Assembly (NCBI GenBank): GCA_016839555.1
Contig: JAEOUA010000003.1
Span: 160,001 to 224,000 of the forward strand
Direction: 5' to 3'
DNA from: Promethearchaeota archaeon
GTDB lineage: Archaea; Asgardarchaeota; Lokiarchaeia; Sigyniarchaeales; SOKP01
Length of the DNA stretch: 64,000 nt
Numbering within the stretch: the stretch's first letter is position 1; every line of letters starts with the position of its first letter. This document shows positions 1 to 9,933 of this stretch, in pieces. Position numbers and translations under genes: made by a program. The notes under the pieces are model-generated. The model was given only the letters and a program-made list of their open reading frames with translations, was not told where the DNA came from and made no database searches.

Positions 1-818
1 TTTAATGTCATCTCTTCTTTTATTTTGGTATCATTTATTTTCTTTTTAATATCTTCAAATGACTTAACTAAATCTCTAATTCTTTCAGAAAACTTTTTGA
101 ATTTTTGGAATTTATTCAAATCATTATTATTACGAGCGATTTTAAAATTAATTTTTTCCTGCTTCTGCTTTTGAATTTCTAATTTTTTTTGATATTCTTT
201 TTTTTCTTTCTGAGAATGGTCTAATGTGGCTTTAAAGGTATCGATTATTTTAACCTCTTTTTCAAAATCAAGGGCACGTTCTCTAAACGCATTTGATAAA
301 GCAGTAGCTGTTTTAATGCCAAAAACAATATCTAACTTTTCATCACCCATTAATATTTTAGAAATTTCTCCCTGAGAAAAATGAATTCCTGCCTCAAAAA
401 GTCGCTTAGAAATCCCAAGAAGTTCGTTTAATTTTAAAGATAAAACTCCCTCTGAATCTCCAAAATCTGTTGCTAAAAGATATTTTTCTTTATCTTTATT
501 TATAATTTTTTTTAAGGTGAAAAATCCATTAGCAGAACGTGATTTTCCCTTTAATTTGTGCATTCTCTGTAATTTATAAATGTTATCATCTTTACCTTTA
601 AAGATAAGCTCCACGCCCACAATATTTTGTTCAAATCGAGTCAATTGTGAAATACTTCGAAATCCTCGAACCATTCCAAAAAGAGCGTATTCTATAGCAT
701 AAAATATTGTTGTTTTACCTGCATTGTTTTTTCCATGAATTAGATTGAAGTGTTCATCTAAATGTATATTTAAGTCTTCATGTCTTCTAAAGTTTTTTAA
801 TTTTATTGATTTAATCAT
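1..818 (-). CDS. Second Rad50/SbcC-like SMC-family ATPase, N-terminal part (runs off the window edge; not in the ORF track)
   Basis: Manual translation from ATG at 818: MIKSIKLKNFRRHEDLNIHLDEHFNLIHGKNNAGKTTIFYAIEYALFG...GIHFSQGEI... It has Walker A GKNNAGKT, a Q-loop, then a K/E/Q-rich coiled coil, and the frame is open to the edge. The ATG overlaps the TAA of the upstream small ORF. Confidence 0.9.
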   Translation of the reverse strand, partial: MIKSIKLKNFRRHEDLNIHLDEHFNLIHGKNNAGKTTIFYAIEYALFGMVRGFRSISQLTRFEQNIVGVELIFKGKDDNIYKLQRMHKLKGKSRSANGFFTLKKIINKDKEKYLLATDFGDSEGVLSLKLNELLGISKRLFEAGIHFSQGEISKILMGDEKLDIVFGIKTATALSNAFRERALDFEKEVKIIDTFKATLDHSQKEKKEYQKKLEIQKQKQEKINFKIARNNNDLNKFQKFKKFSERIRDLVKSFEDIKKKINDTKIKEEMTL

Positions 819-1053
819 CTCTAATTTGCTCCATTTCATCCCTTTCTTCTAATATATCTAATTCAAAAATTTCTTTTATTCTTTGGTGCAATTGAATGCG
901 CGCGTCCTTTACTAATTTAAAAGTTTTAGTAAGATTATTCTCATCATCATATAAATAGTTAGCAAATTCAAATAAACGTACGAGATCGTTTTTTTCATTC
1001 TCAGATAATATAAATTGTGCCAATATCTCTAAAAGGTCGAATTTGAAGCTCAT
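811..1053 (-). CDS. Small acidic helical protein (~80 aa) between the two Rad50-like genes
   Basis: ORF track gives 811..1140. The first ~29 codons are AT-rich, intergenic-like sequence, so the likely start is ATG 1053 (MSFKFDLLEILAQF...). It is translationally coupled to the downstream SMC gene. Confidence 0.65.
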   Translation of the reverse strand: MSFKFDLLEILAQFILSENEKNDLVRLFEFANYLYDDENNLTKTFKLVKDARIQLHQRIKEIFELDILEERDEMEQIRDD

Positions 1054-1136
1054 TATAGAAACCATTCTTTTTATTGATTTGTCTTTAATTTTGGTAATAA
1101 AATAATTATAAAAATTAATATAAAAATTATTATTAA

Positions 1137-3854
1137 TCAACTAATTTTAGTTAAATAATTGACTTCTGTCTGTTCATTATCATCTTTTGTCAACTTAATA
1201 ACATATTCACTATGGCGCTTAAAAGAATCATCATGAGAAATAACAAATAATTGATTAAAATTTCTTGAGACATCATTAATATATCTACTGAGATTATTTT
1301 TAGAATTTTCATCAAGATTTATAGTTGGTTCGTCAAAGATCGCAAAGTTAGCAGAGGTTAATGTTTTTAAGATAGCAAGTCTCACTGCTAATGCAGCAGA
1401 CATTTTTTCGCCTCCAGATAATCTTAAAAATCCTTTCTTAGTTCTTGCTTTAATAATTTCGATTTCATAATTCTTGTTCCATATTAATGAGGTGTTTTGG
1501 TCCCCACGGATATTTCTATATATATTTGATGCGTATCTATTTACTTTCTTTATTAATTCCACTCTCATTTTAGGTTTAAATTCTCGTATCCATACACGTA
1601 TTTTCTTCACGAATTTTTGTTCAGCTTTCAAATTTAACTCTTTATTTTGGAATTCTTCGAGTTTTTTTTCCTTATCTTCTAATTTTTTAATAGATTCATT
1701 AACATCATCAAATTGTTCTTCAATATTATTTAAATTTTCTTTCAATTTAATGACCATTTCATGCTTCTCATCAAATTCTTTTTTAAGCTTATCAAAATTT
1801 TCCTCATCAAATTCTTTTTCATATTTTTTCTTTTCCTTTAATTTTTGCTGAGATAGATTTATGATGTTTTCCAATTTATTTTGAGATTCTAATACTTTTT
1901 GCTTTCTATTCACCAATTTTTCTGCTTCATTGATATTTTTTTGGAATTTGTTATATTGAATTTCTAAATCATTCAATTCTTTCCTTATTTTTGCTAATTT
2001 TGATGGAATTTTTTCTTTTTTGTTTATTTCCTGATTAAATATAGTTCTTTTTTGTTCTAGTTCTTTTAATTTAGTTTTAAGGGGTAAAAGATTATCTTGA
2101 ATTTTTTGGAGACTTTGAGCATTTTTGTTATGGATTAAGTATTGATCATAAAAAGTATTTAATTCTTCTATTTGTACTTTAAGGTTATTTTTAGAATTGA
2201 TAAGTTCTTCTTTTTGCGATATGTTTATTTCTATTTCGATAACATCTTCTTTTAAATTTTTTAAATGTTTTTCATATTCTTCAAGTGTAATTAATTTTTT
2301 TTGTAATCTTTCGATTTCAGTTTGGATTTTAGATTTGTTTTTTAATTTATCCTGAATTTCATTGAATTCATTACGTTTTAATCGTAATTCTTTCTTTTTC
2401 CCTTTTATTTCTTTTTTAAAACCTTCAACATTAAAATTTCCTTCTTGTAGATCTGTACATTTTTTACCTGAAAATGGACAGAGTTTATTTTCAATCTTAT
2501 TTTGATTATTTTGATAAAATGAAAGATCATTTTCTATACTTGACATTTCTAATAGTAAAGAATCTTTAATTTTTTCAAGGTTTATGATTTTTTTATGCTC
2601 TTTTTGTATATGTAATAATCCGCTTATTTCATTTCTTAATAAGGCTATTTCTTGGTTTAAATTTGAAATTTTTTTTTTATTTTTTTCTAAAATATTTTCA
2701 CTAGAATCGATTATAGCTAACTTTTTATTTAGTTCTTGTAATTCATTCTTAAAACTTAAAAGTTGCTGATATTTTGGTTCAATTTCTTTTAGTTTTTCTT
2801 TTGAAAATTGAGCGTCTTTTATTTTGTCTTCAAGATTAGTGTATTGATGTTTAATTTCTTGATATTTCTGATTTAATTGGTTTAATTGATCTTTTTGCTG
2901 TGTTAATTCGTCATTTTGAGTTATAAAATTATTTTTAATTTTATAAAGAGATATATATTTTTCATAAGCATTTTTGGTATAATTGCAGATCTTCTCTGCT
3001 TTAAAAGACTCATTCAATTGTTGTTGGAGAGTTTTTAAATTTTCCTCTTCCTTTTTTTTCTCAAAGTTTAATTGATTATTATCTATGGTAATAGTTTCTA
3101 ATTTTTTTTTTAAATCTTTAAGCTTTTCAAGTTTATCTTTAATAATCTTTCTCCTTTTTTTAGATTTTTCTAGCTTTAACGATGTATCTTTCATTTTTTC
3201 GATAAGATTTTCTTGTGCTTTTTGTTTTTCTTCCTTTTCCTTAGTTTCGCCTATTAATTCGCTAATTTTTTTTTGAATTTCAATCAATTTTTCTTTATAT
3301 TTTCTTTCAATTATTCCTAAATTCTCCCAAAATTTTTCATAGATATCTAATTGAAAAATTTCATCAAAATATTCCTTCCTTTCCTTTGGACTCATTAAAA
3401 AACTGTTAATGATCATCCCTTGGGGTATGCCTATTGCTGTGTTAAATAATGTTTCTAGATTCACATCATATTTTACACCAATTTGCTTTTTTATCCAAGA
3501 TTTAAATTTTGAAATAGTATCTATATCAGGTGAAAGAGATTTACCTTTATCATTAGTTACTTGTATATCACTTCGTCCAATAGTGCGTATAATGCGATAT
3601 ATTTTACTATCTGCTCCACTTATCCAGATTTTTACTGTTCCATAGGAAGGTCTCTCGTTTTCAACTGCTCTTATATAGTCTGAATGATGAGTTTTAGACT
3701 TTAAAAAATCGAACAACACGAACCCAATCATTTCAAGAACAGTAGATTTTCCAGCCCCATTATCACCATAAAGAACATTTAATCCTTCTTTAAAAGATAT
3801 AGATGTATTCTTATGGGTTTTAACATTTTTTATTTCTATTTTTCTAATTATCAT
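1137..3854 (-). CDS. rad50: Rad50/SbcC SMC-family ATPase
   Basis: Walker A GDNGAGKS, Q-loop IGIPQG, long coiled coil with central CPFSGKKC, signature LSGGE, Walker B IFDEPT, H-loop ISHD. Start placed at ATG 3854 after a GGGGG SD-like motif (track start 3905). Confidence 0.92.
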   Translation of the reverse strand: MIIRKIEIKNVKTHKNTSISFKEGLNVLYGDNGAGKSTVLEMIGFVLFDFLKSKTHHSDYIRAVENERPSYGTVKIWISGADSKIYRIIRTIGRSDIQVTNDKGKSLSPDIDTISKFKSWIKKQIGVKYDVNLETLFNTAIGIPQGMIINSFLMSPKERKEYFDEIFQLDIYEKFWENLGIIERKYKEKLIEIQKKISELIGETKEKEEKQKAQENLIEKMKDTSLKLEKSKKRRKIIKDKLEKLKDLKKKLETITIDNNQLNFEKKKEEENLKTLQQQLNESFKAEKICNYTKNAYEKYISLYKIKNNFITQNDELTQQKDQLNQLNQKYQEIKHQYTNLEDKIKDAQFSKEKLKEIEPKYQQLLSFKNELQELNKKLAIIDSSENILEKNKKKISNLNQEIALLRNEISGLLHIQKEHKKIINLEKIKDSLLLEMSSIENDLSFYQNNQNKIENKLCPFSGKKCTDLQEGNFNVEGFKKEIKGKKKELRLKRNEFNEIQDKLKNKSKIQTEIERLQKKLITLEEYEKHLKNLKEDVIEIEINISQKEELINSKNNLKVQIEELNTFYDQYLIHNKNAQSLQKIQDNLLPLKTKLKELEQKRTIFNQEINKKEKIPSKLAKIRKELNDLEIQYNKFQKNINEAEKLVNRKQKVLESQNKLENIINLSQQKLKEKKKYEKEFDEENFDKLKKEFDEKHEMVIKLKENLNNIEEQFDDVNESIKKLEDKEKKLEEFQNKELNLKAEQKFVKKIRVWIREFKPKMRVELIKKVNRYASNIYRNIRGDQNTSLIWNKNYEIEIIKARTKKGFLRLSGGEKMSAALAVRLAILKTLTSANFAIFDEPTINLDENSKNNLSRYINDVSRNFNQLFVISHDDSFKRHSEYVIKLTKDDNEQTEVNYLTKIS

Positions 3855-3867
3855 CTTATAATCCCCC

Positions 3868-5442
3868 TTAAATATTAAGATCTCCATCATCAATAATTTC
3901 ATCAATATCTAAATTCTCATCGCCTTCACCATCAATATCTAATAAATTTTTAAATTCTCCCAACTCTTTAGAAAACTCTTCTTCCCACATCTTATCTATA
4001 TTCATTTGCTTCGATATTTTACTTATTTTCTTCTTTTTTTTCTTTTTTGGATTTTTGAATTTTTCTTGTTTTTTAACAATATTTTTAAGTTCTTGGAAGA
4101 TATCTTGATGAAGATTGAACCAATTATTAATATCACTTTTAATAACCTTATAATCAGCATTCTGGGTAAGTTTCTCTTTTAATTGATTTAAGATGAGTTG
4201 GGAAATTTCTTCTTTATGTTCCCGAAAAGTTTCTTCATTTTTTATAGTTGTTAAGAGTGCTTCTTCTTCGATTTTATCAAAACTCCACTCATCATTCATA
4301 TCAAATTCCTCTTCCATTTTAGAAAAGATTTGGTTATTTATTTTCAAACCTAATATTTCAAATGTGTCAAAAATTTTGATTCTTAATTCTGCTAGATCAA
4401 TTTCTAATTCAGAATAGCCCGTTTCACCTTTTATAGAGAGATATAGAACAGGAACATCAAGATTACTTAATAATGGATTAGAATCACTCCTTTCAGGAAC
4501 ACCTAGTTTTCTAAGTTTATCTATTATCATTATTTCAGCTTCTTCAAATGAATTAGATTCTGAAATATCTATAGAAGAAAATGATAAAAATCTTCTATTG
4601 GGAATAGAATAAGCGTCATAAGTATTTCCATTTTCACATAATATTGATTTTACCCTAAAATTGTTATTTTCATCTGGAAATATTTCCACTAAAAAAATTC
4701 CACGGCCTTCGGCGTATTCGTTAATTTCATTAATTTCAAGGCTTCCCGGATTAAATATCCACGGTTGATTTTCGGGTAATTGATATTGTTTATGAAAATG
4801 TCCCAAAGCTAAATAATCAACCTTCTTGTGTAGATCTTGAAGATTTTCAGTTAAATCATATCCTTTTTTTCTTTTATCTTGCCCATTTATCCCAAAATGC
4901 ATCATTAAAATAATGAATTTATCATTCTCTTGAATTTCTTTCCTAATTAAAGGATATAATTCTGGAGTTGAACTCCCAAAATAACTCATTCCATAAATCA
5001 CGGCATTTTTAATCTCTATCTTTCCTCCAATATGATCCCTAGGGGAAAAATTAGCAAACTTAATACTATTAGAATGATAATCATAAGTTCCTGAAAGTAA
5101 AATTATTAAATCTAAATCAGCCAATAATTTCAACCATGTATGTTCTGAAAAGAATGGAGTTTCATGATTACCTTCTATACATATAATAGGTATTACTCTT
5201 TCTATTGTTTCTTGACATTTTATTTGAAAATCTCTTATTGTCTTTATAATATTAATTAATGTAGATGGATTGATCTTACGCTCGTTATCGATTAAATCAC
5301 CGCTAATTAAAACGAAATCAACTTCTTCAAAAATTGCCTTGTTTAATACCCATTCAAATGCTTTGAAAAAATCGTAATATCTTTGAGTGATATTATAAAG
5401 TGTTTTTCCCAAATGTATATCTGCCGCATGTATAAATTTCAA
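3868..5442 (-). CDS. mre11: Mre11/SbcD metallophosphoesterase nuclease with a long C-terminal extension
   Basis: Motifs ADIHLG, GDLID, EGNHE, MHFG, LGHFH, NPGS. TTG start preceded by GGGGAG. Adjacent to rad50. Confidence 0.93.
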   Translation of the reverse strand: MKFIHAADIHLGKTLYNITQRYYDFFKAFEWVLNKAIFEEVDFVLISGDLIDNERKINPSTLINIIKTIRDFQIKCQETIERVIPIICIEGNHETPFFSEHTWLKLLADLDLIILLSGTYDYHSNSIKFANFSPRDHIGGKIEIKNAVIYGMSYFGSSTPELYPLIRKEIQENDKFIILMMHFGINGQDKRKKGYDLTENLQDLHKKVDYLALGHFHKQYQLPENQPWIFNPGSLEINEINEYAEGRGIFLVEIFPDENNNFRVKSILCENGNTYDAYSIPNRRFLSFSSIDISESNSFEEAEIMIIDKLRKLGVPERSDSNPLLSNLDVPVLYLSIKGETGYSELEIDLAELRIKIFDTFEILGLKINNQIFSKMEEEFDMNDEWSFDKIEEEALLTTIKNEETFREHKEEISQLILNQLKEKLTQNADYKVIKSDINNWFNLHQDIFQELKNIVKKQEKFKNPKKKKKKKISKISKQMNIDKMWEEEFSKELGEFKNLLDIDGEGDENLDIDEIIDDGDLNI

Positions 5443-5457
5443 TGTTAATACTCTCCC

Positions 5458-8400
5458 CTATTCTTTATATCTTAATCTAACTTCTTGAATAATATTATTA
5501 AACTTGTTTTTTATTTGAAGAGGCAGTTCTTTGTTACAAAATTCTTCTACGTACATATAAATTTTTGAAGAATTCTTAATAAGCTCCCTTTCATTGGGAA
5601 TATACTGTATAAATTTGTCGCTAGAAATAAATATGAGTTTATTTTTTGCTCTTGAAGTTAATACATTAAATCTATTTAAATTATATATAAAATCATCTTC
5701 CATTTGCAATTTATCCTCATCCGACAACCCTATGGAACAAATTATTAAATCTCTGTCAGAGCCTTGGAATTTCTCCACAGAATAAACTGTATCTTTTAAA
5801 AGTTGCATTAATTTAGATCTTGATAATTTTGTAAAGAGCTTAAATAAATTATATAACTTTCTAATAATAGTACGCCCTTGGGCATTATGTGGTGCCACCA
5901 CCCCAACTTGTTCAGACCAAAATCTAATTTCCTCTTTTCTATTTGAAGGAGCCACCATTATATAAAATCCTTTAACAATTTCAGCAACGATTTGAGCCTC
6001 AAAAAGGCTAATTCCAATTTCAAATTGTTCATTATGAATAATTGAGCATGCTACCCTCTTTGGGAGTAAAATTTCCTTTAACCATAATTTATTAATATTG
6101 CTTAGATTCCCCTGAAGGGTACTTTTTGCATTTTGCTCATATGCCTGTAAATCCTCGTATAAACCCAAAAGAGAGGTAAATTCAACAATATCTTTATGAG
6201 AACGATAATTAACTTTTAATTGTTTACTAGAAATGTTATGCCCCTCAACATAATACCTAAAAACATTATCTAAAATTAATTCAAGGTTTTTCGGTGGCTT
6301 TTTAACCCTCACAGGCGATAATTGATTATGATCTCCAACAATTACTATTTTAGTAAGAGATTCTGGGGATATTTTGTTGTTAGCGATTATTAAAGGATCA
6401 ATCAAGTTCTTGTCATTAATCAATTTTTTTGAAAGCATATCAGTAGGTTTTTCAATAGTAATTTTTGGTTTTTTAATAAATTGCAAACTTGACATAAAGT
6501 AATCTGCTGGCATTTGACTCGCTTCATCCACAAAAATTAAATCGAAAGCAAAATTATCTGCAACCCTCTCCGTTAAATGATATAATTGATGAGCATTCGC
6601 AAAGATAATGAAATTATTTTCTAAAGATTCCTCTAATAAAATAGTGTTAGTCACTGATCTGGGTTTTCCATTTAATTTCCAAGTATTTCCATCTTTCATT
6701 AAATCATCTATATCTCTACATTTCGGGATCTTAGGTATGGGATTTTGTGTACTAGAATGAATAAATATCATCTGGAGCTTTGATGAGGGAGTTTGTTTTC
6801 CAAATATATCTTTACTTTTCCGGATTTTATCTATTATAACTCTTAGTGCTGCATAAGAAAAAGAAGTGATGAGTATTTTAATTGATTTATTTTGCTTAGT
6901 CCGCCTTATAACATATTCATCAATAAAAGCGGCTATAGTCTGAGATTTACCTGTGCCGGGAGGGCCCAATATGGCTGATATTATATTATAGAGAGAATTT
7001 TTTATTGCTTCTTTTTGAGAAGGATCCGGAGTAGGGGCGATTTTTGTAAACAGATGGGGTTCCTTTAACTGCTTATTAAAGTGCTTTAATAATAATGGGG
7101 CAAATAAATAAATTGAGGGAGTTGTAAAAGACCAATTATACGGCCATTTTAATTTGGGCTTAATCCTAAGATTCCATAGAAAAGCTAATCTTGCTCCTAA
7201 CCAAGATTGCCCAAAATTTTCTCTTTGTAGTAAACCATTATTATTTCGACAGTTATATAATTTATTAGACCATGAATCGGGACTAATAGGATAGATATAC
7301 CATTCTTCTTTTACCGGATCTATTCCCTCTTCACTGCAAATATTGTATACATTATTAGATGTTGGTTTTGTAGTTATAATATATCCTCCAATTGATGGAT
7401 CCCATTTTATATCATTAATAGATATAATCCATTTAAAAACTCTATTATCAATTTTCAATCCCCTTTTGGAATTGGGAATTAACAATACTCTATTACCCTC
7501 TTGGATCTTCATATTACAGGAAAGTCCAATAAGAGTAAATTTATATTTTAATGATTTACCTTCTAAATCTATTATTTCAAGGTGTTGTATTCTAGCAGAA
7601 GATAATTTCCCGATACTGAAATCTGGAAACATTGTTCTATAATATTCTTCATCTTGCTGCTGTAAAGCATTATTAAGTCTTGAGAATAAATACCAAACAT
7701 GAGAAATATCATGATATTCAGAGGGTAAAATTGCACTTTTATAATCATGTCGACTAATTGTCCTTGCGTTTTCAGAAAGAGCTGTATTTCCTTCTTTTTG
7801 AAATTTAGAGCGGATTTGATCAATTACATGAAGTTTAAAAATAATTTGCTTTCTAATAATGTTTAATTTTTTCTTCTTTTTCTCTGGATCTTTTTCCCTT
7901 AAATATAATAACCAATTAGCAAGATCCAAGAAATTAAAATGAGGAATCCAGTACATTTTTGTATTTATATTTAATTTAAATAATTTTTTAGCAATGCTAT
8001 GCCAAGTATAATTGATTATATCTGGAAATCCAACACAAGTTTCCGCAAAACTTTGAACGTCAAATAATTTTTTATGTTGATAAGGATTACTGACTTCAGT
8101 ATCTGAGGGCGTAAAATACATTAAAATAGCTTCATAAGCAGCTCTTGCTTTTGTATTACTAATAACTACATTTAAATTTCTCTGTAGCATATCTTGAAGA
8201 TGTTCTAATTGATTTCTAGACCAATAAAAAATGCTTGTGTCTGGACCGATATAATATTTTCCATATTTCCCATTTATATCAATAACAATAAAATCCTCAA
8301 TGATATTGCACATCTGTAATACCAAGTTCAATCTTAATATGGTAGTAATGGTTAGATCAGCTTCACTTTCATTGGTAATATCTTCGTTCACCTTCGCAAA

Positions 8401-9933
8401 TCTATACATTATACTGCTTCCCGCACTTGTTTTTTCACCTCTTAATGAGATCTCAACGGTTTTTAATTTTTTTAAACAATTTAAAAATAAGTCAACAATC
8501 TCTATTGGGATTTCTCTTATTAAATAATCATTCAACTCTCCTTGAATTTCTTTAGTGGATTTATTTTCTTCAAGTCCGTTTTTCCAAATTCTCCACCAAT
8601 TATCGAAAATACCATGATATTTTAGTTTAGATGATATAAACATTTTTAAAAGGATACCTACAGCAAATATTCTATCCGTATTTCTATCATACTCAACATC
8701 AAAATTGATTCTAATAGGGGAATATCTAGGAATTGAATAGGAATAGATCTGAGTATTTTTTGGATACACTAATCTTTTGTTTTTTAACGCTTTTATTTTT
8801 AGTTTTAAATTTGGTAGTTCGGAATAAAGAGGTTTAGGAATATTATCAATTTTTATTTTATCAAAATTTTTTATTAGATCTCCAATAGTTTTGAAATTGA
8901 ATTCATTTATTAATTGTTGAGCAATCGATTTTGAAGTAAAGGGGATTAATTTTATTGACCAATTTTCGGGGTCATTTTTTTCCTTCATTCCTAATGTTGC
9001 TTTACAATCCTCTATAAATTGACAATATCCACATCCATCATGAATATTTGTTTTAATTTGATTAATTGGACATGGTGATTTTTTCCATAATTCTTTTACA
9101 ACCTTTATTACTTGATTATAAATTCGATTAGCTTCTTTCCAACTGACCAAATTAACTAACTCATTGTTAAATAAATCTTCTATAGAACTAATGGTTTTAA
9201 GTTCCTCCTCTCCCCTCAAAGATAATATCCCATTAAAATTTGCTCTTACATAATAGATATTTTCTAAACCTATATGTTTTAAATAAAAAGCTAGCGTTTT
9301 TAGATAATAAAATATCTCTAAAAAATGCTTTTTACCTACATTCTCTTCATTTGTATATTTAATATCAAAAATCGATATTCCTAATCGTTCATTTTCTTTT
9401 TCTTTTGGAATTTTTTGAATACTCCCATCAGCTAAAATCTCGTACAAAGATTCAACATATTTATTTAATCCATTGCCAATAAAAATTAGATCTGGCCTCT
9501 GAGAGGAATATTCAACAGGAATATCTCTGAATTTTGCTTTATGCATAAAAATAGGATAAAAAAAAGAACGTGGTATTTCGAATTCATATTCTAATAGTAG
9601 GATGAGAGAATTCGAGATATTATTTTTTAATTTTGTGCTGAAATTAATTAAAATATTTGGATATAAATAAGAGTCTTCTATTTCTCCATCATATTCTCTA
9701 AAGTACGTATTGTTCAGTTTTTTTAAGTATGAATAAACAATTTGTTCATATTCTTTTCCTTTTTCTTTTAAGTATTTGGTTTGAAAAATTAATCGTTCAG
9801 GAGGAGTTGAAGGGATTGGCCTTAGTGGATTAAACCATAAATCAGGATGATCTCGACCCAATTCTAAAAATAATCTTCTCTTGCAATTCGTAAGAATATA
9901 ACTTTGTAATAAGATCTTATTAAATTTGGCCAT
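5458..9933 (-). CDS. Nuclease-helicase fusion: Fe-S PD-(D/E)XK nuclease, RNase H-like domain and SF1B (Dna2/UPF1-like) helicase
   Basis: N-terminal Cys (NCKRRL), RPDLI, IFDIKY and CGYCQFIEDC give the 1+3 Cys arrangement of Cas4/AddB/Dna2 nucleases. Middle region has INFDVEYD. C-terminal helicase motifs: GPPGTGKS, DEASQ, VGDHNQL, NYRSH, VEKFQGSDRD, NRFNVLTSRAK. Confidence 0.88.
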   Translation of the reverse strand: MAKFNKILLQSYILTNCKRRLFLELGRDHPDLWFNPLRPIPSTPPERLIFQTKYLKEKGKEYEQIVYSYLKKLNNTYFREYDGEIEDSYLYPNILINFSTKLKNNISNSLILLLEYEFEIPRSFFYPIFMHKAKFRDIPVEYSSQRPDLIFIGNGLNKYVESLYEILADGSIQKIPKEKENERLGISIFDIKYTNEENVGKKHFLEIFYYLKTLAFYLKHIGLENIYYVRANFNGILSLRGEEELKTISSIEDLFNNELVNLVSWKEANRIYNQVIKVVKELWKKSPCPINQIKTNIHDGCGYCQFIEDCKATLGMKEKNDPENWSIKLIPFTSKSIAQQLINEFNFKTIGDLIKNFDKIKIDNIPKPLYSELPNLKLKIKALKNKRLVYPKNTQIYSYSIPRYSPIRINFDVEYDRNTDRIFAVGILLKMFISSKLKYHGIFDNWWRIWKNGLEENKSTKEIQGELNDYLIREIPIEIVDLFLNCLKKLKTVEISLRGEKTSAGSSIMYRFAKVNEDITNESEADLTITTILRLNLVLQMCNIIEDFIVIDINGKYGKYYIGPDTSIFYWSRNQLEHLQDMLQRNLNVVISNTKARAAYEAILMYFTPSDTEVSNPYQHKKLFDVQSFAETCVGFPDIINYTWHSIAKKLFKLNINTKMYWIPHFNFLDLANWLLYLREKDPEKKKKKLNIIRKQIIFKLHVIDQIRSKFQKEGNTALSENARTISRHDYKSAILPSEYHDISHVWYLFSRLNNALQQQDEEYYRTMFPDFSIGKLSSARIQHLEIIDLEGKSLKYKFTLIGLSCNMKIQEGNRVLLIPNSKRGLKIDNRVFKWIISINDIKWDPSIGGYIITTKPTSNNVYNICSEEGIDPVKEEWYIYPISPDSWSNKLYNCRNNNGLLQRENFGQSWLGARLAFLWNLRIKPKLKWPYNWSFTTPSIYLFAPLLLKHFNKQLKEPHLFTKIAPTPDPSQKEAIKNSLYNIISAILGPPGTGKSQTIAAFIDEYVIRRTKQNKSIKILITSFSYAALRVIIDKIRKSKDIFGKQTPSSKLQMIFIHSSTQNPIPKIPKCRDIDDLMKDGNTWKLNGKPRSVTNTILLEESLENNFIIFANAHQLYHLTERVADNFAFDLIFVDEASQMPADYFMSSLQFIKKPKITIEKPTDMLSKKLINDKNLIDPLIIANNKISPESLTKIVIVGDHNQLSPVRVKKPPKNLELILDNVFRYYVEGHNISSKQLKVNYRSHKDIVEFTSLLGLYEDLQAYEQNAKSTLQGNLSNINKLWLKEILLPKRVACSIIHNEQFEIGISLFEAQIVAEIVKGFYIMVAPSNRKEEIRFWSEQVGVVAPHNAQGRTIIRKLYNLFKLFTKLSRSKLMQLLKDTVYSVEKFQGSDRDLIICSIGLSDEDKLQMEDDFIYNLNRFNVLTSRAKNKLIFISSDKFIQYIPNERELIKNSSKIYMYVEEFCNKELPLQIKNKFNNIIQEVRLRYKE

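Follow-up and report, generated by a model that had tools for sequence, protein, structure and literature searches.

The small acidic protein and the divergent Rad50-like ATPase encoded at the edge of the 64,000-nucleotide stretch of Asgard DNA analysed here (the window) probably constitute an Mre11 stub and its Rad50 partner, Rad50-B, a pair that heads a five-gene module derived from an archaeal mre11-rad50 operon and that would work as a clamped, nuclease-free Rad50-B machine. Both genes are read from the minus strand. The small ORF (811..1053, 80 aa) runs from an ATG at 1053 to a TAA at 813-811, and the first 272 codons of Rad50-B occupy 1..818, the gene continuing beyond the window over a total of 839 aa (minus strand, 158299-160818 of contig C1, equivalent to L006:8299-10818). 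The preliminary description had reported an acidic ORF of 80 aa overlapping the start of a divergent Rad50-like ATPase, and the minus-strand reading bears this out: the small ORF, whose product has a pI of 4.5, shares 8 nt of its stop region with the start of Rad50-B (811..818, minus strand, ATGATTAA; ATG at 818-816), the text across the overlap being AGAGATGATTAA. A GGAG-type SD-like sequence lies in the final codons of the small ORF, ahead of Rad50-B, and from this sequence and the overlap we infer that both genes are translationally coupled. The small-ORF start codon and its tight junction to the ATPase gene are kept in seven related genomes, with distances of -8, -8, 0, -4, +3, +24 and +4 nt, and in most of the distant loci the small gene overlaps the Rad50-B gene by 1-8 nt. 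Upstream, an AT-rich spacer of 83 nt (1054..1136, minus strand) extends from the stop codon of the neighbouring Rad50-A gene to the small ORF and holds the sequence AAAGACA (1080-1086) about 30 nt before the ATG. An AAGAC-type motif appeared at a similar distance 5′ of the ATG in 7/7 orthologs, in four of them in the AAAGACA form, and is found too in genomes G024 and G014, both devoid of Rad50-A upstream. The spacer probably serves the module as a promoter or leader of its own.

Profile comparisons identified the small protein as a free-standing homolog of the C-terminal helix-loop-helix of Mre11, which is the Rad50-binding region of this nuclease (review PMC7752040). Alignment of the small-ORF profile with a 29-sequence Mre11 profile by hhalign gave a probability of 96.4% and an E-value of 1.2e-9, matching residues 4-63 of the small protein to Mre11 columns 346-405 of 414 through the common motif ENLT..(F)NL.K.AR..L, while profile-profile negative controls gave a probability of 0.1%. 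An HMM built on the last ~70 residues of Mre11 recovered exactly the 41 small ORFs present among 2,295 six-frame ORFs, at E-values from 1.5e-11 to 5e-4, the next match lying at 5.1. This homology is supported by a single Mre11 clade, of which one member bears the label Nanohaloarchaea. The co-resident Mre11-A (524 aa, 3868..5442, minus strand), a neighbour that carries a phosphoesterase domain, has a C-terminus dissimilar to the small ORF, the comparison with its profile finding nothing (probability 0.1%), and the small-ORF HMM showed no similarity to the two Mre11 proteins of the genome or to the one of a relative (E of at least 0.006). Since the stub resembles neither Mre11 of its own genome, it has not been derived recently from a resident mre11. 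The small protein lacks the phosphoesterase and capping domains of Mre11, and Pfam found no Metallophos match in it, nor did the ORF match any Pfam, NCBIfam or PADLOC entry. Searches with its profile HMM against PDB sequences returned only noise (E of at least 0.41).

The small protein consists of a conserved core (residues 1-65) and a variable acidic tail, with 20 D+E against 11 K+R, half of the acidic residues being located within the last 20 positions. Its structural model is all-helical, with main helices at 18-35 and 38-79 and a pLDDT of 68, and is too small and too helical to be informative in fold comparisons: Foldseek gave E-values of at least 7.4, and VIA-align returned only generic long helices, with Z of at most 5.8. 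An alignment of the seven orthologs contains 23 invariant columns. A database search restricted to proteins of 40-147 aa yielded 46 clusters of homologs at E<=3.4e-25, all of 65-119 aa; public MAG records label such homologs as 'hypothetical protein' and those of Rad50-B as 'AAA family ATPase'. Of 400 Asgard genomes, 24 gave a match to the small ORF, and in 21 of these the match immediately precedes a Rad50-B homolog; of the remaining three, one is an orphan, one is interrupted by internal stop codons and one is a weak match lying within a long ORF. Overall, the small ORF keeps its start and tight junction in the seven related genomes and lies immediately 5′ of a Rad50-B homolog across about 35 non-redundant loci, whose hosts range from Asgard archaea rich in AT to bacteria rich in GC; conservation beside rad50-B homologs far exceeds chance.

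An interface between both proteins, which had been proposed beforehand, was predicted well above the controls. Modelling of the complex gave an ipSAE of 0.69 (runs 0.68-0.69) against 0.01 for the best of three controls, a mark attained in the benchmark by 58 of 80 solved complexes and by 2 of 110 mismatched pairs, although the Rad50-B alignment was shallow (7 rows) and the prediction may reflect memory of solved Mre11-HLH/Rad50 structures. Because such complexes have already been solved, the result shows likeness to Mre11-HLH/Rad50 as much as binding. At least 83% of the contacts were common to the runs, with a partner pLDDT of at least 78. The predicted contacts involve conserved hydrophobic positions of the small protein and residues 160-181 and 670-710 of Rad50-B, the best-conserved part of the coiled coil. 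L24, F28, L55 and I59 make up the conserved hydrophobic face of the small protein. Hence the prediction places this protein as a clamp on the base of the Rad50-B coiled coil, at the site where Mre11 binds Rad50. NLTK (residues 40-43), which varies least among the motifs of the small protein, falls outside the predicted interface, so that the clamp would account for only part of the function of this protein.

By its motifs and domain layout, Rad50-B is a Rad50-derived ABC ATPase. An N-terminal Walker A and a C-terminal Walker B/D-loop and H-loop flank a long coiled coil, and the protein matches Pfam AAA_23 at 7e-15. Its head begins MIKSIKLKNFRRH...GKNNAGKT...HFSQGEI and that of Rad50-A begins MIIRKIEIKNVKTH...GDNGAGKS...IPQGMI, both translations agreeing with the heads first quoted. 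The motifs GKNNAGKT, FLLIDEPTEF and LITHQD are invariant in the seven orthologs and kept in Asgard and bacterial members. So is, in the seven orthologs, the sequence CEYCG at residues 415-419 of 839, and a single CxxC near the midpoint was found in 20/20 family members examined, which points to a putative zinc hook. The ABC signature LSGGE/Q is absent and replaced by Y[EQ]GGG[HYQ], invariant across the family. The closest solved relatives are the archaeal Rad50 heads of M. jannaschii and P. furiosus. With 96.6 bits as its best score, Rad50-B stays below the cut-off of 847 of the NCBIfam Rad50 equivalog (NF002244), and Rad50-A is also below, with 208 against a cut-off of 700.

Rad50-B had been regarded as the second Rad50-like ATPase and as an old paralog rather than a recent duplicate. 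The count must be amended: a full HerA-NurA-Mre11-Rad50 operon, recognised with Pfam, is present on contig C11 of the same genome, and thus Rad50-B is the third Rad50-like ATPase. The age of the divergence holds, since identity between Rad50-B and Rad50-A is 29-30% over ~90 residues at each end and, in a head-domain tree obtained by a quick search, unrooted, with long branches and a sparse outgroup, the Rad50-B family forms one clade (support 98%), with Rad50-A located in a separate one. In that tree the sister clade of the Rad50-B family (support 92) includes the Rad50 of a NurA-HerA-Mre11-Rad50 operon whose Mre11 is precisely the one matching the small ORF, and bacterial Rad50-B sequences are nested among archaeal ones. 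The module thus appears, from these sequence relationships, to have originated from archaeal Mre11-Rad50 and not from bacterial SbcCD.

The preliminary description had also suggested that the small protein could be a kleisin-like or LmuC-like subunit bridging Rad50-A and Rad50-B in an asymmetric SMC heterodimer, echoing the eukaryotic SMC pairs. We consider this highly improbable. The genes of Rad50-A (905 aa, 1137..3854, minus strand) and Rad50-B lie side by side in the same orientation in five related genomes, the variant signature of Rad50-B could be tolerated in an asymmetric head dimer next to the LSGGE of Rad50-A, and the small protein is predicted to bind beside the ATPase head. However, Rad50-A is a neighbour outside the module. 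The module adjoins Mre11/Rad50-A in only five closely related Loki genomes, which leaves the A/B heterodimer unsupported, and neither Rad50-A nor Mre11 accompanies it in two Loki genomes belonging to the same family, in any of the other Asgard lineages or at any bacterial locus. Conversely, Rad50-A orthologs of about 905 aa are present in genomes where neither Rad50-B nor the cassette was found; the module being mostly devoid of Rad50-A and Rad50-A occurring without it, the eukaryotic echo is likewise unbacked, and nothing points to a bridge between both ATPases. Moreover, the variant signature is invariant even in bacteria lacking Rad50-A, hooks and arm lengths are unlike (905 aa with CPFSGKKC at the hook position for Rad50-A, 839 aa with CEYC for Rad50-B), and the motif-bearing spacer of 83 nt parts Rad50-A from the small ORF. 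No kleisin features were recognised in the small protein itself. It resembles ScpA, MukF and JetA in being a small helical element predicted to sit on an SMC-like ATPase at the part of the coiled coil nearest the head, but its model has no C-terminal winged helix for capping a second head, 80 aa are too short to bridge two heads, neither Pfam nor PADLOC gave a kleisin match, and its sequence homology is to Mre11.

The comparison with LmuC fared better in its evolutionary logic, given the homology to the Mre11 C-terminus, than in its letter, since the PADLOC LmuC model found no match. According to a published proposal, the long LmuC descends from the C-terminal domain through which SbcD binds SbcC, and its gene directly precedes that of LmuB (PMC12663957). 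In both Lamassu and the module, a small subunit is encoded ahead of a CxxC ATPase of SbcC/Rad50 descent, and the occurrence is accessory and patchy. Unlike Lamassu, the module encodes no LmuA-type effector, the PADLOC LmuA and LmuC models matching none of its proteins; the arms of the Rad50-B family are of full length (700-870 aa) and the partners are different, namely the 174-aa protein p174, a MoxR AAA+ ATPase and a VWA protein. The PADLOC LmuB model recognises Rad50-B (E 1.8e-26) and Rad50-A (1.1e-28) alike and is therefore indiscriminate. As the origin appears to be archaeal Mre11-Rad50, the module looks like an event parallel to Lamassu. With Mre11-Rad50 (SbcCD) it shares the gene order, partner first and ATPase second, a Rad50-like ATPase with a CxxC hook in the middle of the coiled coil, and a partner homologous to the Mre11 C-terminal helix-loop-helix and predicted at the same site of the coiled-coil base. 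It differs from SbcCD in the stub, which lacks the phosphoesterase, capping and dimerisation domains and consequently provides neither a nuclease nor an Mre11 dimer bridge, in the [EQ]GGG signature of Rad50-B instead of SGGE, and in the association of Rad50-B with p174, MoxR and VWA genes in place of HerA/NurA.

The order of the module is fixed: small ORF, Rad50-B, p174, MoxR AAA+ and VWA/MIDAS protein. With MoxR as query in the search for related loci, the complete set of genes was seen in about 28 loci from Loki-, Thor- and Kariarchaeota, Planctomycetota, Myxococcota and Pseudomonadota; with one exception, no gene is missing wherever the locus extends far enough to reveal the five, and a partial Heimdall locus has MoxR-VWA only. 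No Metallophos gene was found within the module in any locus. The p174 protein, for which no Pfam family was found in 16 members, yielded a confident model with no structural match in Foldseek (E of at least 0.4) or VIA-align (Z of at most 5.5) and has no similarity to Mre11. Its C-terminus bears the invariant motif PT.TE.FF, which, like the acidic tail of the stub, is a candidate ligand of the MIDAS site. MoxR is an AAA_5 protein of ~300 aa with Midasin as best solved relative (E 2e-30), an invariant Walker B NE and 58-88% identity among loci. The VWA protein is large and carries its VWA domain at the C-terminus, and its MIDAS motif DxSxS is intact and invariant; no nuclease, protease or toxin effector domain was recognised in this or any other module protein.

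An AAA_5 MoxR followed by a large VWA protein with DxSxS is also the arrangement of RavA-ViaA, CbbQ-CbbO, NorQ-NorD, Midasin and the MoxR-vWA conflict systems. The module departs from these pairs in the NE instead of DE of the MoxR Walker B, in a VWA protein fused to no peptidase or other effector, and in its Rad50/SMC-like ATPase, a coupling without counterpart in the searchable MoxR/vWA literature, where no Rad50 or ABC ATPase partner is mentioned. The ternary conflict systems of Kaur et al. (2020) combine MoxR, a vWA protein, usually effector-fused, and a third sensor or scaffold, of which the module has MoxR and VWA; the text of that study (PMC7159879) contains no mention of Rad50, SbcC or ABC ATPases. 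The literature searched gave no paper combining Asgard, Rad50 and MoxR, and the five-gene module is apparently undescribed so far.

Taken together, the data favour an explanation in which an archaeal mre11-rad50 operon would have given rise to the module, with mre11 shortened to a Rad50-binding stub, in parallel to the origin proposed for Lamassu LmuC/LmuB from SbcD/SbcC. The stub would clamp the coiled-coil base of a Rad50-B homodimer, resulting in a nuclease-free, ATP-gated, hook-linked complex able to bind or sense DNA. In this complex p174 might be an additional subunit, and the midasin-like MoxR together with the MIDAS-bearing VWA protein may remodel or load the complex or relay its state. 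As for its role, we favour the sensing of foreign or aberrant DNA, since the module appears accessory, patchy and common to two domains, with Lamassu as precedent.

A more specific version of this role, compatible with the explanation above, is that the module provides Lamassu- or Wadjet-type immunity against viruses or plasmids, with Rad50-B and the stub sensing DNA ends or replication intermediates; we regard it as possible but rather doubtful. The occurrence in 24/400 Asgard genomes, and in 3/6 other genomes of the window's genus, is patchy, archaea and bacteria both carry the module, the bacterial sequences falling within the archaeal ones, and the flanking genes are heterogeneous, a few of them conflict-type (HipA, SUKH-1, a PIN-like pair). 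Likewise, a split of SbcD of this kind is proposed to have turned SbcCD into Lamassu (PMC12663957), and MoxR-VWA cores are recurrent in conflict systems (PMC7159879). On the other hand, neighbours are mostly housekeeping, and in the window's lineage the module lies within a conserved neighbourhood of ribosomal and transcription genes. No PADLOC model matches the small protein, p174 or VWA, the LmuB models match Rad50-A equally, no effector domain was found, and MoxR shows a degree of conservation uncommon among defence genes. A defence reading is also weakened by the fact that no plasmid or viral-contig copy was found with the queries used, which were a bacterial p174 for plasmids and MoxR for IMG/VR viral sequences. 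If the module does confer immunity, its output could tentatively be assigned to MoxR-VWA, or to an unrecognised effector within p174 or the N-terminal 660 residues of the VWA protein.

A housekeeping device for DNA maintenance or chromosome tethering, in which a nuclease-free Rad50 bridges DNA via its zinc hook and the stub is only a structural cap or a competitor keeping true Mre11 off Rad50-B, seems unlikely. The Rad50-type hook and intact ATPase motifs are consistent with such a function, as are the helicase-nuclease/Mre11/Rad50-A repair-like operon alongside the module in five genomes and the DinB-family and Exo_endo_phos neighbours of two loci. Nevertheless, most of the genomes searched within the window's family yielded no copy of the module, which is thus dispensable, the MoxR-VWA link is without precedent in repair, and transfer across domains suggests an accessory role. 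A broader and more speculative proposal, which we would not yet put forward as probable, is that the module represents a new SMC-based class, in which a stub clamp, a Rad50 paralog and p174 are wired to a midasin-like AAA+/MIDAS remodeller. It would be of archaeal origin by mre11 truncation, exchanged between Asgard archaea and bacteria of complex cell biology (Myxococcota, Planctomycetota and Alphaproteobacteria), and could serve as DNA-sensing immunity of a new kind, devoid of a classical effector, or as an ATP-driven tether loaded and unloaded by MoxR-VWA.

These results correct as unsupported a tempting eukaryote-like reading of an Asgard locus, that of an SMC heterodimer. They also draw attention to a compact five-gene module that holds two proteins of unknown family, one of them a confident model without structural match, and that would couple a DNA machine of the Rad50 type with an AAA+/MIDAS pair resembling midasin, a pairing not found in the searchable literature. 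Its presence in an archaeon available in culture, Candidatus Lokiarchaeum ossiferum B35, as well as in Myxococcota and Gemmata relatives, makes it experimentally approachable. Finally, the stub and Rad50-B would offer a second, independent case, provable by sequence, of a route for which Lamassu has until now been the only proposed example, by which an Mre11/SbcD-Rad50/SbcC repair operon is repurposed through the trimming of the nuclease to a Rad50-binding handle.

Every relevant gene of the region lies on the minus strand of contig C1 (window: 160001–224000) of this 3.7 Mb, AT-rich Lokiarchaeial (Promethearchaeota) assembly, the GC content being 26% over the first 1,140 bases of the window. 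An SF1 helicase protein of 1,491 aa (5458–9933) is followed by Mre11-A (3868–5442), Rad50-A (1137–3854; 905 aa), a spacer of 83 nt (1054–1136) and a small ORF encoding 80 aa (811–1053), which overlaps by 8 nt the gene of a divergent Rad50-like ATPase, Rad50-B, starting at the ATG at 818. Rad50-B runs past the window edge and reaches 839 aa when the DNA beyond it is included. Next after it, in the bordering DNA (locus L006) just outside the window, come a 174-aa protein, p174 (L006:7747–8271), a MoxR AAA+ ATPase (L006:6759–7667; 302 aa, Pfam AAA_5) and a protein of 843 aa carrying a VWA domain at its C-terminus; DUF359 and then the gene of ribosomal protein S24e lie further 3′. The peptides and the stop/start overlap quoted in the preliminary description proved correct on translation, and the small protein is indeed acidic (pI 4.5, half of its 20 acidic residues, 10, being among the last 20 positions). 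Regarding the neighbouring genes, Rad50-A (1137–3854, minus strand) carries CPFSGKKC (Cx6C) where a CxxC zinc hook would be expected. The helicase upstream of Mre11-A has 72–73% identity in those three related genomes whose loci extend that far, and shows weak helicase-domain matches to the anti-phage models PLuB, ProA and Hhe, all of them far under the model cut-offs.

The small ORF is a genuine gene that has Rad50-B as its fixed partner. Six further genomes of this family encode Rad50-B orthologs with 45–51% identity, and in all six loci the small ORF stands directly upstream with its start kept, the alignment of its orthologs containing 23 invariant columns. When 5.8 billion proteins were searched with the small-ORF profile, 46 clusters of 65–119 aa were retrieved, none with an E-value above 3.4e-25; the named ones are hypothetical proteins of Promethearchaeota. 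The gene is present in 24 of 400 Asgard genomes and directly followed by a Rad50-B homolog in 21; the other three hold an orphan copy, a copy with two stop codons and a weak match inside a long ORF. In genome G023, a copy broken by TGA and TAA (L069:8001–8228; E 1.8e-20) lies just upstream of ORFs of 385 and 529 aa and of an Mre11 (432 aa)/Rad50 (707 aa) pair, and may be the relic of a lost module.

The distance from the small ORF stop to the Rad50-B start is −8, −8, 0, −4, +3, +24 and +4 nt in the seven orthologs. The final codons of the small ORF contain a GGAG/GGAGG Shine-Dalgarno-like sequence, which partly accounts for the Glu/Gly-rich tail of its product. In the G001 ortholog (L029:5836–5842) Rad50-B begins without ATG, GTG or TTG, and a CTG-ATA overlaps the TGA of the small ORF, an arrangement that suggests initiation at a non-canonical codon or by termination-reinitiation. 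An AAGAC-type motif occurs in all seven orthologs about 30 nt before the ATG of the small ORF, as AAAGACA in four of them (1080–1086 on the minus strand of the window, within the spacer 1054–1136). Since the motif is kept even in the two loci without Rad50-A upstream, it suggests that the small ORF and the genes following it might have a promoter or leader of their own.

Searches with the small protein gave no family or fold match, and modelled alone it forms a short helix and two long ones (18–35 and 38–79; pLDDT 68). Its origin emerged from comparison with the operon of P0197, a canonical Rad50: the small-ORF profile aligned to the last 58 residues of the Mre11 encoded there. When compared by hhalign with a profile of 29 sequences of that Mre11 clade, one of them labelled Nanohaloarchaea, residues 4–63 matched Mre11 columns 346–405 of 414 (probability 96.4%, E 1.2e-9), sharing the motif ENLT..(F)NL.K.AR..L, while control comparisons of the small ORF with the Loki Mre11-A and of p174 with the Mre11 profile each gave a probability of 0.1%. 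As an independent check, an HMM built only from the last ~70 Mre11 residues was run against 2,295 six-frame ORFs of the fetched loci, recovering the 41 small ORFs among them at E-values from 1.5e-11 to 5e-4, the next match being at E 5.1. Because Mre11 binds Rad50 beside the ATPase head through its C-terminal helix-loop-helix (PMC7752040), the small gene reads, from its sequence, as an mre11 cut to its Rad50-binding handle, which has kept the mre11 position upstream of a rad50-type gene.

Binding of the small protein to Rad50-B was predicted by co-folding. The small protein (44-row alignment) was modelled with residues 1–260 and 620–839 of Rad50-B (7-row alignment), giving an ipSAE of 0.69 over three runs (0.68–0.69) versus 0.01 in the best of three controls, a score that reflects likeness to the already solved Mre11 helix-loop-helix/Rad50 complexes as much as binding. 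Among 80 solved complexes 58 attained this ipSAE mark, as did 2 of 110 mismatched pairs; the counts are only approximate here because our own alignments were supplied. The three runs had at least 83% of contacts in common, with a partner pLDDT of at least 78. Predicted contacts involve the conserved hydrophobic positions of the small protein and residues 160–181 and 670–710 of Rad50-B, that is, the coiled-coil base, its best-conserved stretch outside the head.

Rad50-B itself is a Rad50 derivative and not an ortholog. Its Asgard and bacterial members retain Walker A, Walker B (DEPT), the H-loop (THQ or THH) and a single central CxxC, and every member examined carries the ABC signature Y[EQ]GGG[HYQ] instead of LSGGE. 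All seven Loki orthologs share an invariant HFxQG Q-loop, which a motif search did not detect in most of the distant members. Rad50-B scores far under the NCBIfam Rad50 cut-offs, and an exhaustive HMMER search placed 69 representatives of its family at E ≤ 1e-30, with canonical Rad50s just beyond. In a head-domain tree, obtained by a quick search, unrooted and with long branches, 30 Asgard and bacterial rows of the family formed one clade (SH-aLRT 98), whose sister (support 92) includes P0197, 27% identical to Rad50-B and encoded in a NurA-HerA-Mre11-Rad50 operon; Rad50-A was placed elsewhere. The genome of the window also carries, on contig C11 (L112:1018–7377, plus strand), a canonical operon of HerA (580 aa), NurA (402 aa), Mre11 (439 aa) and Rad50 (696 aa; Pfam Rad50_zn_hook). 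It thus contains three Rad50-like ATPases and two Mre11-like phosphoesterases, so that Rad50-B, previously described as the second such ATPase, is the third, and the helicase/Mre11-A/Rad50-A set of the window is itself an extra set.

The small ORF/Rad50-B pair belongs to a five-gene module for which Rad50-A is not needed. Mapping by BLAST and HMM over all fetched loci revealed the order small ORF, Rad50-B, p174, MoxR, VWA, with genes mostly overlapping or near-abutting, in every sufficiently long locus (~28) except L033 (6786–10667), where the small ORF and a Rad50-B homolog (837 aa, 35% identity) precede a leucine-rich-repeat protein. In L033, p174, MoxR and VWA do not follow the ATPase, and a Band_7 protein and two unknown genes lie upstream. 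The module adjoins the helicase, Mre11-A and Rad50-A in five genomes only (genera g1 and g7); it is located away from them in two same-family genomes, and neither Mre11 nor Rad50-A was found near it in any other mapped locus. ORFs of ~905 aa of the Rad50-A type were also seen in genomes that yielded no Rad50-B.

Organism names were obtained by searching one genome per species with MoxR, which is highly conserved. Whole modules were found in Lokiarchaeia, including the complete genome of Candidatus Lokiarchaeum ossiferum B35, Thorarchaeota and Kariarchaeota, and among bacteria in Gemmata and Gemmatales, Myxococcota, Sandaracinaceae, one Alphaproteobacteria MAG and MAGs labelled Rickettsiales and Alcaligenaceae. 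Partial loci come from Heimdallarchaeota (L090; MoxR and VWA only), an Archangium contig that stops in MoxR and a Planctomycetota MAG that begins at p174 (L091), and in a further metagenome contig a sigma-70 factor and a response regulator are neighbours of the module. Rad50-B is split in two ORFs in L073 (9296–11484) and the VWA gene is split in another genome (L074:4837–7494), which may be due to frameshifts or module decay. Paralogous MoxR-VWA pairs also stand alone in Loki genomes (L104, L106, L107), one of them in Candidatus Lokiarchaeum ossiferum besides its full module; their MoxR is 53–57% identical to that of the module, with no small ORF, Rad50-B or p174 alongside.

Of the five genes, MoxR is conserved best (58–88% identity from Asgard to bacteria), and it has an invariant NE in place of DE in Walker B. 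Its best solved relative is eukaryotic Midasin (E 2e-30, as against 2.5e-14 for a bacterial MoxR and ~1e-6 for NorQ/CbbQ). The VWA protein keeps an intact, invariant DxSxS MIDAS motif, and no domain was recognised in its ~660 N-terminal residues. The confident AlphaFold model of p174 (pLDDT 86.8, pTM 0.74) is helical in its N-terminal half, whereas its C-terminal half is a small alpha/beta unit; neither a convincing PDB match (Foldseek, VIA-align) nor a Pfam family was found. The protein carries a lysine-rich KKGKKY patch and a C-terminal motif, PT.TE.FF, near-invariant from Loki to bacteria.

Taken singly, the Rad50 derivative, the Mre11 C-terminal domain and the MoxR-VWA pair are of kinds already known; no description of this gene combination, of the Mre11-stub gene or of p174 was found in the literature searched. 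We consider the identity and architecture of the module, as read here, highly probable. In the working that we consider most likely, a Rad50-B homodimer would be joined at the zinc hook with its heads gated by ATP, and one stub would clamp the base of each arm. As the stub is devoid of the nuclease and dimer domains of Mre11, the complex could bind or tether DNA, not cut it. An additional subunit is probably provided by p174, and the MoxR ring with its MIDAS adaptor would load, strip or relay the state of the Rad50-B/stub complex. Against a DNA-sensing role speak the lack of a recognisable effector in the module, the heterogeneous and mostly housekeeping flanking genes, and the lack of plasmid or viral copies with the queries used. 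On the other hand, the patchy cross-domain distribution, together with the precedent of Lamassu, whose LmuC/LmuB have been proposed to originate from SbcD/SbcC by splitting of SbcD, favours an accessory role of the module in DNA sensing, a function that we put forward tentatively, as a possibility rather than the probable one.
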